A stretch of 33,270 bases of DNA. Origin: Betaproteobacteria bacterium. GTDB taxonomy: Bacteria > Pseudomonadota > Gammaproteobacteria > Burkholderiales > SG8-39. The notes under the pieces are model-generated. The model saw only the letters and a program-made list of their open reading frames with translations, was not told where the DNA came from and made no database searches. The stretch is from positions 1 to 33,270 of the forward strand of contig JANNXB010000205.1 of assembly GCA_031409355.1 (NCBI GenBank). Direction: 5' to 3'. Made by a program: the position numbers and the translations under genes. Of this stretch, positions 16,404 through 17,902 are shown in pieces (positions within the stretch are counted from its first letter, which is position 1; each line of letters starts with the position of its first letter).

Positions 16404-16444
16404 TCAGAAGCTGACGAGCCGCGGCCCCACGTCGTCCAGGGCGA
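16404..16444 (-). pseudogene. orphan duplicate of the lpxH 3' end (displaced, probably native, tail)
   Basis: Reverse complement reads gcc ctg gac gac gtg ggg ccg cgg ctc gtc agc ttc tga = ALDDVGPRLVSF*, identical to the LpxH C-terminus. 32/41 nt identical to 17165-17205. Confidence 0.92.
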
Positions 16445-16466
16445 ATAAATAGGGTCAGAGTCAATT

Positions 16467-16886
16467 CTAGGTGCGGAGCAGGTGAACTTTGGCGCCAAGA
16501 CGCGCCGCGGCCCGGGCAAGTTGCCTGTCTGCAGTGCATAAGGGTTCGCGATTCGAGGCGGCGATGGCGAGGTGGAGAGCATCGAGCGTGGAGAGAGGAG
16601 CAGCGCCCGATCGCAGAAACCTTTGTGCCTCGATGAAGGTCTCTGCGACGACCGGCAGCCTCCGATAGCGGCGGTCGGCGAGGTGGGCATCGAAGGTGCG
16701 CAGCACCAGCGCGCCGTCGGCTGCGGAGATCGTGCGCTCGCGTAGCCGGCGGGCGACGACGGAAGCGAACTCCACCTCGGTCAGGGCCGAGATCGCGGGC
16801 GGCGTGGCGCCAACCGCGGTGGCCGCCGCCTTGGAGAGGCCCTCGGGAATATAGAGCGCGCCCAGTACTGAGGTATCCAGGTACAA
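16467..16886 (-). CDS. vapC: PIN-domain type II toxin, VapC family
   Basis: YLDTSVL (first PIN Asp), ISALTEVEFAS, LSTLDALHLAIA, LCTADRQL. TTG start 3 nt after the antitoxin stop. Confidence 0.9.
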   Translation of the reverse strand: MYLDTSVLGALYIPEGLSKAAATAVGATPPAISALTEVEFASVVARRLRERTISAADGALVLRTFDAHLADRRYRRLPVVAETFIEAQRFLRSGAAPLSTLDALHLAIAASNREPLCTADRQLARAAARLGAKVHLLRT

Positions 16887-16889
16887 ACG

Positions 16890-17123
16890 TCAGCCCCGGG
16901 CTTTGCGGCGTTCCTCGATCACCAGCTGACTGGTGGCTTTGCCTCGCGCTTTTATGCCTGCCCTGAAGGCGCTCAGGTCAGGCAGTCCGCGTGCCTCGGT
17001 ATCGACGGGGCGCAGTTCCGCCGCAGGCTTGCCACGCCGGACGATCCGGATGCGCTCGCCGCGGGCGACGCGGTCGAGGATTTCGCTCAGGTGGTCTCTC
17101 AGTTCTTTGGTGCCGATGTCCAT
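16890..17123 (-). CDS. Phd/YefM family antitoxin
   Basis: MDIGTKELRDHLSEILDRVARGERIRIVRRGKPAAELRP has the Phd/YefM N-terminal pattern. 77 aa, directly upstream of the PIN toxin, GGAG SD. Confidence 0.88.
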   Translation of the reverse strand: MDIGTKELRDHLSEILDRVARGERIRIVRRGKPAAELRPVDTEARGLPDLSAFRAGIKARGKATSQLVIEERRKARG

Positions 17124-17137
17124 GCGGAGGCTCCAGA

Positions 17138-17163
17138 AGGTACATCTGAAGTGTACACCTGAA
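17138..17163 (-). promoter_or_regulatory. putative antitoxin operator overlapping the TA promoter -10
   Basis: GTGTACAC palindrome (17151-17158) plus a degenerate AGGTACAT copy (17138-17145), GTAC cores 13 bp apart. TACACT -10 candidate on the minus strand (17150-17155). Confidence 0.65.
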
Positions 17164-17164
17164 C

Positions 17165-17902
17165 TCAGAACGAAACCAGCCGAGGGCCTACGTCATCCAG
17201 GGCGAGGTAGCCGCCGGGGCCGTACCAGTCGGGCAGGACCCAGCGTTCGCAGCGCGTGCCGTCCACCTCGTGTTCGTGGCGCGCCGCGCGGTGGGTATGG
17301 CCGTGGATCATGTGCCGCAGCTTGAGGTGGCGGAACACGTCGCGCACCGCTTCCTGGTTTACGTCCATGATCTCCGCGGGCTTGGCAGAGATGACTTCCT
17401 TGCTCTTCTCCCGCAGGCCTTGAATTTCTTTTTTTCTTTCGAAAATATTTTTTGAAAGGAAGTCGCGCTGCCATTCGGCAGAGCGCGCGATGCGGCGCCA
17501 GGCTTGGTAGTCGTGGTCGTCGGTGCAGAGCGTGTCGCCGTGCAGCAGCGCCACACGCTTGCCGGCGATCTTGATCACGCTGGGGTCCTCCAGGAACTGG
17601 GCGCCACTGGCGGCGAGGAATCCCTTGCCGACGAGAAAATCCCGGTTGCCATGCATGATCCAGATCTTCACGCCCTTTTTTGAAAGGGCTTTGAAACCGG
17701 AAGCCACCTCGGCGGCGAGCGGATCGCCGGCCGCGTCCTTCAGTTCGTCGTCGCCCGCCCAATATTCAAACAAGTCGCCTAGCACATAGAGCGCCTTCGC
17801 ACGCGCAGCTTCGTCGGCAAGGAAGCGGAAGAACTGCTGGTTGGTGTCCGGGCGCTCCGCCGAGAGGTGCAGGTCGGAGATGAACAGCGCCTGCTGGCTC
17901 AC
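17165..17902 (-). CDS. lpxH: UDP-2,3-diacylglucosamine diphosphatase
   Basis: Metallophosphoesterase motifs FISDLHL, LGDLFEYWAGDD, HGNRDF, HGDTLCTDD, HGHTHR, VLPDW. Downstream of a cyclophilin gene. Confidence 0.94.
   Translation of the reverse strand: MSQQALFISDLHLSAERPDTNQQFFRFLADEAARAKALYVLGDLFEYWAGDDELKDAAGDPLAAEVASGFKALSKKGVKIWIMHGNRDFLVGKGFLAASGAQFLEDPSVIKIAGKRVALLHGDTLCTDDHDYQAWRRIARSAEWQRDFLSKNIFERKKEIQGLREKSKEVISAKPAEIMDVNQEAVRDVFRHLKLRHMIHGHTHRAARHEHEVDGTRCERWVLPDWYGPGGYLALDDVGPRLVSF

Follow-up and report, generated by a model that had tools for sequence, protein, structure and literature searches.

A toxin-antitoxin cassette between two silently diverged copies of the lpxH 3' end in a betaproteobacterial genome

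Results

Genes and features of the lpxH-metZ locus

The stretch of DNA analyzed here (the window) spans positions 1 to 33,270 of contig JANNXB010000205.1 from the Betaproteobacteria bacterium assembly GCA_031409355.1. The assembly, designated G000, is a metagenome-assembled genome (MAG) of 571 contigs and 3.47 Mb that is 90% complete with 4.8% contamination, and the window is its contig C205 (33 kb). Within the window, a toxin-antitoxin (TA) cassette lies between the convergent genes lpxH, which is essential and acts in lipid A synthesis, and metZ, and the 3' end of lpxH is present on both sides of the cassette. An earlier sequence-only reading of the window had attributed this arrangement to a dedicated delivery system, and its claims are taken up where our results bear on them. 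Below, G numbers denote genomes, C numbers contigs, L numbers loci, and X numbers sequencing runs. The features of the locus are as follows.

15234-16403, plus strand: metZ, encoding O-succinylhomoserine sulfhydrylase, convergent to lpxH (NCBIfam equivalog NF006003, 699.3 bits, over the cut-off).
16404-16444, minus strand: orphan lpxH 3' end, the native-type allele, with no start codon and with three in-frame stops between the orphan and vapC.
16445-16466, minus strand: right end of the cassette, a T/A-rich run (16445-16451) followed by an arm resembling a repetitive extragenic palindromic (REP) sequence (16452-16466, GGGTCAGAGTCAATT on the plus strand).
16467-16886, minus strand: vapC-like gene for a PIN-domain toxin of 139 aa, with a TTG start (Pfam PF01850, E 2.2e-12).
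16890-17123, minus strand: phd/yefM-family antitoxin gene, 77 aa (Pfam PF02604, PhdYeFM_antitox, E 1.6e-8; TIGR01552).
17124-17164, minus strand: 41-nt leader separating the lpxH stop from the phd ATG; it contains the palindrome GTGTACAC (17151-17158).
17165-17205, minus strand: in-gene lpxH tail, the functional copy and the cassette-linked allele, ending GTT TCG TTC TGA.
17165-17902, minus strand: lpxH, encoding UDP-2,3-diacylglucosamine diphosphatase, 245 aa (NCBIfam NF003743/TIGR01854, 287.9 bits for NF003743, over the cut-off).

The insert is about 720 bp and holds only the two TA genes, which are co-oriented with the antitoxin first and 3 nt between phd and vapC. The PIN match scored 48 bits (PF01850 cut-off, 23.6), and the antitoxin scored 34.6 bits for PF02604 (cut-off, 29.8) and 33.8 bits for TIGR01552 (cut-off, 20.8). 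Acidic residues of the PIN protein include D4, E37/E39, D102, and D120, which would correspond to the PIN catalytic positions. By gene order and family match, the pair is a type II TA module, predicted to encode a Phd/YefM antitoxin and a VapC-like PIN toxin. The 41-nt leader is conserved at the three other places where the cassette is described below (G049, L140, and G006) and is presumed to be the TA promoter/operator; a scan of the leader and the cassette ends found no consensus promoter or terminator.

The two lpxH tails differ only at silent positions

The last 12 codons and the stop codon of lpxH are present twice on the minus strand, at 17165-17205 within the gene and at 16404-16444 as the orphan, which starts 761 nt downstream of the in-gene copy in the sense of lpxH. 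The in-gene tail reads GCC CTG GAT GAC GTA GGC CCT CGG CTG GTT TCG TTC TGA and the orphan reads GCC CTG GAC GAC GTG GGG CCG CGG CTC GTC AGC TTC TGA, such that both encode the peptide ALDDVGPRLVSF followed by a stop. Including two bases (TC) ahead of the first codon, the repeat is 41 nt long and identical at 32 of 41 positions. Realignment confirmed what the sequence-only reading had reported, namely that the 9 differences in 41 nt, which fall in 7 codons and include a TCG/AGC exchange for serine, are all silent (9/9). The sole exact run at the 5' edge of the repeat is TCGCCCTGGA (10 nt), and outside the 41 nt the sequences flanking the two tails are unrelated. All 12 sense codons of the orphan end in G or C, and the in-gene copy uses GAT, GTA, CCT, and GTT. 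Moreover, the stop codon of the orphan lies directly against that of metZ (TGATCA).

Silent changes account for 26 to 29% of the single changes available in the tail, and when 9 random changes were simulated in the 39 nt of coding sequence plus stop, the peptide was kept in 0 of 200,000 trials. Chance is excluded as the origin of the peptide-preserving divergence. A genome-wide scan for a repeated 9-aa C-terminal peptide plus stop returned 38 same-strand pairs within 20 kb, among which lpxH alone had more than 3 nt differences (8/30). No further copy of the cassette or the tail was found in the G000 assembly.

The arrangement is not a mis-assembly of two strains, an outcome that the sequence-only reading had named as fatal to its proposal. 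A single 1438-nt unitig from X2, the probable source run, matches 16232-17669 with 0 differences. Contigs from two other, independent studies bridge the junctions: record 11 of X5 (16404-16712, 0 differences) crosses from the orphan into the cassette, and record 23 of X6 (16936-17212, 3 differences) crosses from the cassette into the in-gene tail. Unitigs of X6 and X7 stop at 16444, possibly at a branching variant. No joint of 16444 to 17206, as expected for an empty site, is listed in the run contigs, which are contigs only and whose depths are silent on the abundance of an empty form. X5 holds the G000 form, a G049-like form, and a 787-nt contig (depth 22) with a 92%-similar cassette end in which lpxH position 17270 is joined back to 16445 ("goes back 826"). 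The latter joint could represent a longer orphan whose tail copy starts 106 nt ahead of the stop, a tandem arrangement, or the junction of a circle.

The lpxH-metZ junction is an insertion hot spot in the genus

We compared the junction across 34 species genomes of the genus; the lpxH 3' end was recovered in 28, and metZ was on the same contig in 26. The site is empty in 20 of the 26, with a single lpxH tail and a gap between lpxH and metZ of -11 to +45 nt. The lpxH gene of these empty-site genomes ends in AGC/AGT-TTC-stop in 14, in TCG in 3, and in another residue in 3. Two of them, G041 and G047, share the TGATCA junction of G000. The site is occupied in the remaining 6 of 26 (G000, 761 nt; G049, 806 nt; G009, 813 nt; G012, 1854 nt; G008, 2544 nt; G024, 4348 nt), and in all six lpxH has a TCG or TCC ending.

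Occupied sites carry different cargo, as the sequence-only reading had anticipated. G049 carries the Phd-PIN cassette of G000 at this site, with 86% identity; G009 has a gene for an Rv0078B-type antitoxin and a 185-aa open reading frame (ORF) without assignment; and G008 contains one cyclase-TPR and one YHS-domain gene. G024 (contig C13, L032 1268-5617) has 4.3 kb of cargo comprising a cyclase-TPR gene, a YHS-domain gene, an 84-aa ORF without assignment, a ParE pair, and a Gp49/HTH_37 (HigBA-like) pair. We conclude that the lpxH-metZ junction is an insertion hot spot in the genus, because its occupied sites bear differing cargo, and that TA modules are its most frequent guests.

G024 also supplied two further orphan tails. 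One of 69 nt (PDWYGRRGYLALDDVGPRLVSF followed by a stop, 4247-4315) comes directly after the ParE pair and differs from the in-gene copy at 8 nt in 7 codons, 5 of the 6 single-nucleotide changes being silent. The other, of about 25 nt (GARLVSV followed by a stop, ~5039-5063), comes after the HigBA-like pair. The inserts of G008, G009, G012, and G004 held no orphan at an E value of 0.5 or below, save for a 13-nt exact match in that of G004 (E 0.002); because this word lies upstream of the tail, it was read as chance and rejected as an orphan.

The in-gene tail resembles that of another lineage

Counted in nucleotide differences, the orphan is separated from the tails of G041 and G047 by 4 each and from that of G049 by 7. 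For the in-gene tail, the counts are 3 to G049 and 9 to G041/G047. The lpxH genes closest to that of G000 are those of G041 (82%) and G047 (80%). Moreover, the junction of tail end and leader in G049, GTT TCG TTC TGA GTTCAGGTGTACAC, is identical to that of G000. A third context is the metagenome locus L140, where the cassette is present at 81% identity behind a DctM permease gene with neither lpxH nor metZ nearby. The left end of the L140 cassette still reads TGGTTTCGTTCTGA before the leader, which is the last 14 nt of the lpxH tail. Because of the matches to G041/G047, G049, and L140, the in-gene tail belongs to the history of the cassette and the orphan to that of the host.

Both parts of this assignment had been proposed from the sequence alone, and both stand: 14 of the 20 empty sites have the AGC/AGT-TTC-stop ending of the orphan, and the tail and leader match G049 and, over 14 nt, L140. 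The proposal that the replacement tail had been specially recoded fails, as GTT TCG TTC TGA/TAA is the ordinary lpxH ending of a neighboring clade and is found in G008, in G024, and in G042, the last of which has an empty site. G042 also bears on the expectation that relatives without the TA pair would lack the in-gene type of tail; G041 and G047 agree with that expectation in having orphan-type tails, and G042, with its TCG type, does not.

Segment trees and sliding identities were computed over lpxH and metZ. The whole-metZ tree places G000 and G049 as sisters (95/93), as does the segment tree of the first 650 nt (98/95). In the last 450 nt of metZ, however, G000 groups with G041 and G047 (91/95), and in the 330 nt of lpxH before the tail, G000 is sister to G041 (96/89) and G049 belongs to the other main clade. 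Conservation in the 100 nt upstream of the tail is too high for a crossover to be placed. Between G000 and G049, cassette identity is 86%, similar to that of the regions in which the two genomes are sisters (~85-96%). Thus, by phylogenetic grouping, a tract of G041/G047 type lies on both sides of a G049-type block made up of the in-gene tail and the TA pair. We note that within the lpxH body (17206-17902), the nearest relative switches every 100 to 200 nt, with G047, G041, G048, and G024 in turn, which suggests frequent between-species exchange within the gene.

The cassette has a constant right end and a variable left end

Three of the 34 genus genomes carry the cassette (G000, G049, and G006). 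Among 185,579 species genomes, there was one truncated copy (80%) on a 1.9-kb contig, with all other matches at or below 45%; in JGI metagenomes, there was one match at 86% (L140), with the rest at or below 50%. In every context, the cassette ends on the right a few nucleotides past AATTGACTCTGACCC, a 15-mer that is one arm of a REP-like palindrome with a consensus of approximately GAAAAGGGGTCAGAGTCAATTTCC ... GGAAATTGACTCTGACCCCTTTTTC. With at most one mismatch, the arm is found in 11 of the 34 genomes, with 23 copies in G006 and 1 to 3 in each of the ten others. The G006 copies are mostly inverted pairs 45 to 60 nt apart, a control search with the arm read backwards gave 0 matches, and some copies flank an IS200-like Y1_Tnp gene resembling those of REP-associated tyrosine transposases (RAYTs) (G006:C166:22-927, loci L232-L237). 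The G006 cassette is flanked by a diverged left arm and the right arm and has no lpxH sequence at its left end. In G000, there is one exact copy of the arm (16452-16466), with no second arm in the window, and one Y1_Tnp match (PF01797), on C327.

The lpxH portion at the left end of the cassette is 0 nt for G006 and 14 nt for L140; for G000 and G049, it is at least 41 nt. The 5' edges of the lpxH duplications lie at ~25, 41, 69, and at least 106 nt, and no nucleotide motif is shared by the three lpxH-side breakpoints. Other tail-duplicating cassettes, described below (C199, G024, L120, and L200), have no REP arm and end on the right 2 to 11 nt after the toxin stop. An integron cassette was considered and rejected: neither boundary has a GTTRRRY attC core, and no structured element was found (z-scores of +0.95 to -0.00).

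Duplicated gene tails flank TA cassettes at many genes

The same architecture recurs at other genes. Taken together with those of lpxH, the duplications measure 14, ~25, 31, 33, 37, 41, 69, 117 to 231, and 545 nt, and their copies range from identical to silently diverged. At L140, the DctM 3' end is present in triplicate (in the full gene and as copies of 165 and 545 nt), with two TA pairs in between, and the 545-nt orphan differs from the gene mostly at silent positions (pS 0.21, pN 0.05, pN/pS 0.25). At L120, a 31-nt tail of a DUF4197 gene is duplicated around a Phd-PIN pair with 5 differences, of which 4 are silent, counting a TAG/TAA stop change. The repeat at L200 (33/33 nt) comprises the last 6 codons of an SMP-30-like gene.

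Within G000, there are 44 PIN matches, of which 41 had enough flank for a direct-repeat test. Strong direct repeats bracket 5 of the 41 cassettes (C199, C274, C67, C343, and C506), compared with 3 of 600 random windows (Fisher p 4e-5), and flanking duplications were enriched 27-fold around the PIN cassettes. At a loose threshold, the counts were 7 of 41 cassettes and 27 of 400 windows. The lpxH pair itself is too diverged for this screen. C199:577-1275 (L247) shows the lpxH-type architecture in pristine form: VapB (651-845) and PIN (842-1243) genes lie within a 31/31-nt repeat (577-607, 1245-1275) made of the last codons and stop of an acyl-CoA dehydrogenase gene, and a convergent gene for a transketolase C domain follows. 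At C274:770-1583, a PIN cassette is flanked by 37-nt copies of the tail of the upstream ORF with one silent difference, and at C67:2269-3746 at least 117 nt of an ORF 3' end is duplicated at 96% identity. The C343 cassette (6-1295, L248), a PIN and MazE-type pair (242-995, minus strand), lies within 231-nt direct repeats at 94%. Each repeat contains a MazE-like gene end and a PemK gene start, such that one TA cassette is inserted into another TA operon. The C506 cassette (136-1078) lies within a perfect 34-nt repeat (GGGCCATAGGTTCGATCCC...) that resembles a tRNA gene 3' end by its T-arm motif, and no integrase ORF was seen between the repeats. A weaker match is C369:1449-2410, where the copies, EELLRYKLNED and EELLSYKLNED, differ at 5 of 33 nt and share 10 of 11 residues.

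A peptide-level tail screen of 160 VapC loci examined 292 tails and gave 2 matches (L120 and the doubtful L096), with 0 in a reversed-peptide control, and at the stringency of that screen the clean tail-duplication pattern is a minority among distant VapC homologs. The targets are many and mostly non-essential. The sequence-only reading had supposed insertion into essential-gene 3' ends, with a presumed crossover at the 10-nt identity. Specific targeting of essential genes is not supported, as the same architecture is found at DctM permease, DUF4197, SMP-30-like, acyl-CoA dehydrogenase, and other genes; nor is there a fixed crossover core, as duplication lengths range from 14 to 545 nt.

Related arrangements were also seen. 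At C52:7279-9603 (L244), Fic-domain and HTH genes lie between a complete family-2 glycosyltransferase gene and a copy of its 3' part (~60 aa, ~95%), and here the orphan fragment is upstream of the gene pair. At L109 and L177, HigBA-like and Phd-PIN pairs lie between two copies of a segment that comprises the upstream region and first codons of a downstream 354-aa gene; in L109, the duplication (~818-971 versus 2895-3127) covers 112 nt at 95% and 54 nt at 89% and involves the 5' end, not the 3' end. Finally, many of the 44 PIN matches of G000 are on short contigs or near contig ends, and TA cassettes may be a cause of assembly breaks in G000.

Discussion

How a cassette without a mobility gene came to lie between two versions of one gene tail is best explained, in our view, by general recombination between diverged lineages at an insertion hot spot, an event of the class called insertion with long target duplication. 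We put the probability of this explanation at roughly 60%. The two lpxH tails would be naturally occurring versions of one 41-nt segment, contributed by two diverged lineages. Of these, the in-gene copy is the TCG-type ending linked to the cassette, as in G049, and the orphan is the AGC-type ending contiguous with a metZ 3' end of the G041/G047 type. Both would have been under selection as functional lpxH ends, each in some lineage, until recently, and the differences would be silent in 9 of 9 cases because both copies were shaped by selection while they served in that role. The structure would have been built by the general recombination of the host, not by a dedicated integrase. Indeed, the in-trans delivery system of the sequence-only reading need not be invoked, because recombination between lineages, which the mosaic flanks point to, suffices to explain the silent divergence.

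Two routes might have produced the locus. In one, a block comprising the lpxH tail and the TA pair would enter an empty site of the G041/G047 type by homology in lpxH on one side and, on the other, by an illegitimate joint immediately past the REP arm, as a one-sided-homology or Campbell-like insertion. In the other, an older insertion with a 41-nt target duplication would predate the split of G000 and G049, and later the orphan with its metZ flank and the lpxH body would be replaced by homologous import from an empty-site relative of the G041/G047 type. Homology ends at the edges of the duplication, and so the whole orphan would be converted together with metZ. The two routes fit equally well. 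Whatever the order of events and the manner of joining, selection would favor products that keep both elements, the TA pair by addiction and lpxH by its essentiality. Tight cassette ends may likewise reflect trimming, by repeated illegitimate joins, to the smallest addictive unit. The REP arm was probably left over from a previous landing site, although it may have contributed to breakage.

Several points weigh against recombination between lineages as the full account. The donor is not in hand, and neither the crossover in lpxH nor microhomology at the TATTTAT/TCGCC joint can be shown. A stretch of 41 nt at 78% identity is not expected to suffice for RecA-type recombination, so that short-homology routes would need another activity or an illegitimate joint. 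Divergence between the G000 and G049 cassettes (86% identity) is about that of their flanks, and the two genomes are sisters in metZ, so that one old insertion and a recent transfer are equally likely; an old insertion, in turn, requires at least 2 later imports that stopped exactly at the duplication. G049 has no recognizable orphan, the best local score of its 90-nt spacer being reached by 131 of 500 shuffles. Direction also varies: the in-gene tail of G024 resembles that of its sister G042 and looks native, and the odd copy there is the 69-nt orphan. The cassette-side breakpoint at 16445 is the same in G000 and the X5 variant and lies just past the REP arm in G049, G006, and L140, and such constancy could indicate an end-specific enzyme. 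Finally, many duplications cluster at 31 to 47 nt, which could be a mechanistic signature and not only survival bias.

An end-specific enzyme is central to two other explanations. The cassette might be an integrase-free mini element akin to a cis-mobilizable element (CIME), moved in trans by a tyrosine or serine recombinase whose attP would carry the lpxH tail, with crossover in TCGCCCTGGA; this is essentially the model of the sequence-only reading. The gene is indeed restored by the carried tail, the differences begin right after the 10-nt identical core, G024 has accreted cargo serially with orphan tails, and the perfect 34-nt repeat around the TA pair of C506, if its T-arm motif marks a tRNA 3' end, would be a classic integrase signature. 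We nevertheless regard the model as improbable. The tyrosine recombinase family PF00589 has no match on the 33-kb contig C205, as the sequence-only reading had noted in reporting no integrase, and 2 in the assembly (C90 and C478), with serine recombinases not searched for; no arm-type repeats or structure were found; the lpxH duplications differ in length and 5' edge; and only 14 nt of the tail is left in L140 and none in G006. Moreover, at least 5 other unrelated targets in G000 have the same architecture, and a single site-specific enzyme cannot account for so many targets and breakpoints. Alternatively, the cassette might be cargo of a doublet like the REP pairs called REPINs, with a Y1 HUH transposase cutting at the REP arm to fix the right end and leave the left end variable. 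The breakpoint within a few nucleotides of the arm in four contexts, the arm being part of a genus-wide palindrome, the position of the G006 cassette between two arms in a genome with a REP-flanked Y1_Tnp gene, and the one Y1_Tnp match of G000 are all in its favor. A single arm is all that G000, G049, and L140 have, however, and the cassettes of C199, G024, L120, and L200 have none. REPs are common in intergenic space, such that adjacency may be incidental for a motif that occurs once in G000, and IS200/IS605-type transposition proceeds without target duplication. We doubt REP-based mobilization about as strongly as we doubt a recombinase acting in trans.

Other explanations put the duplication itself first. 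Insertion of addiction cassettes, like that of restriction-modification genes, might give primary target duplications of ~30 to 47 nt (e.g., by staggered-break repair), with silent divergence coming later. Flanking repeats are enriched around PIN cassettes, and the pristine cases of C199 (31/31), L200 (33/33), C506 (34/34), and C274 (37 nt with 1 difference) are what such a process would leave. The length cluster, however, may reflect survival bias, long identical repeats being prone to deletion, and identical repeats could also come from transfer between very close relatives. We think it unlikely that this process is the answer, as it alone does not explain 9 of 9 silent differences and inter-lineage exchange would be needed anyway, even though the 31- to 47-nt cluster resembles the 45- to 47-bp cases in Table 2 of Furuta et al. 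2010 (PMC2853133). Simplest of all would be in-situ duplication with ordinary mutational divergence or, in a 571-contig MAG with 4.8% contamination, a chimera of two strains. Both are scarcely credible. An untranslated orphan would not keep its peptide in the face of 0 of 200,000 simulations, and the orphan matches living alleles of G041 and G047. A chimera is further contradicted by the single unitig across the region, by the independent runs that hold both junctions, and by the 10-nt identity, which cannot seed a k-mer assembly join.

Recombination between lineages at a hot spot shares traits with several known systems. Homology-facilitated illegitimate recombination and Campbell-type integration were reportedly described by de Vries and Wackernagel in 2002 and by Prudhomme and colleagues in 2002. 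They are alike in pairing a homologous anchor at one end with a non-homologous joint at the other, which fits the donor-type in-gene tail, the native orphan, and the variable breakpoints; they differ in that the anchor here is short and diverged (41 nt, 78%) and that the result is a duplication instead of the usual deletion. CIMEs are said, in work by Pavlovic, Bellanger, and colleagues, to be integrase-less derivatives of integrative elements that target gene 3' ends. As in CIMEs, a carried 3' fragment restores the gene, the native end is orphaned, and accretion occurs in tandem; here, however, there is no integrase nearby, no fixed core, a unit of ~0.76 kb, and many unrelated targets in one genome. 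REPs, REPINs, and RAYTs, reportedly treated by Nunvar in 2010 and by Bertels and Rainey in 2011, are brought to mind by the REP-like arm that ends the cassette and is multiplied in a relative with an IS200-like Y1 transposase, but the window has half a doublet, other tail-duplicating cassettes lack REPs, and we know of no case of REPIN cargo.

Insertion with long target duplication offers the closest parallel. Nobusato and colleagues are credited with reporting it for restriction-modification genes in 2000. Furuta, Abe, and Kobayashi (2010, PMC2853133) describe a class of restriction-modification insertions with no mobility genes and repeats of >30 bp to ~400 bp, some over gene 3' ends; there and in a review by Mruk and Kobayashi (PMC3874152), inserts are <20 kb, the repeats align to one copy in an empty-site genome, and the mechanism is given as unknown. 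PMC2654758 does no more than cite Nobusato. The lpxH locus is similar in having an addiction-type pair without a mobility gene, repeats of >30 bp (41 nt) and of variable length that overlap a gene 3' end, and a single tail copy in 20 of 26 genus genomes to which the repeats align. It differs in its TA cargo, in the serial orphans at one gene in G024, and in repeats that are 78% identical with silent-only divergence, compared with 44/46 to 47/47 for the restriction-modification cases listed in PMC2853133. Near-identity of the repeats, absent at lpxH, is present at C199 (31/31). A full-text literature search, which did not extend to supplements, found no paper describing the long-target-duplication mode for TA modules. 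The ccdO157 "islet" between folA and apaH of E. coli (Van Melderen and Saavedra De Bast 2009, PMC2654758) is likewise a type II TA pair alone between conserved genes, present in some relatives and absent from others. A duplicated and silently diverged gene tail is not mentioned in the passages of PMC2654758 on such islets that were consulted.

We speculate, while holding it rather unlikely, that units of gene tail plus TA pair are homology-addressed, integrase-free mobile cassettes. Such a unit would consist of the 3' end of a conserved host gene, a promoter, an antitoxin, and a toxin. It might exit as a circle between two tail copies or by cleavage at the REP arm and integrate into a relative through short-homology recombination in the tail of the same gene, whereupon the gene would be restored, the native tail orphaned, and reversal blocked by addiction. 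Repeated rounds would give serial orphan arrays like those of G024 and L140. Our results give no evidence of machinery directed at essential genes or of deliberate recoding of tails.

The new features here are a cargo of TA genes, the accumulation of serial orphans at a single gene, and divergence confined to silent sites, which marks exchange between lineages. How TA modules move between genomes without transposases or integrases is poorly understood, and the locus is a dated footprint of one such movement. It extends the long-target-duplication phenomenon from restriction-modification systems to TA modules and offers a genome-wide search criterion, namely gene tails that are identical in peptide and diverged in DNA. 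If TA cassettes are indeed homology-addressed units, diverged tail pairs would be a general, searchable footprint of the spread of TA modules and possibly of restriction-modification systems.

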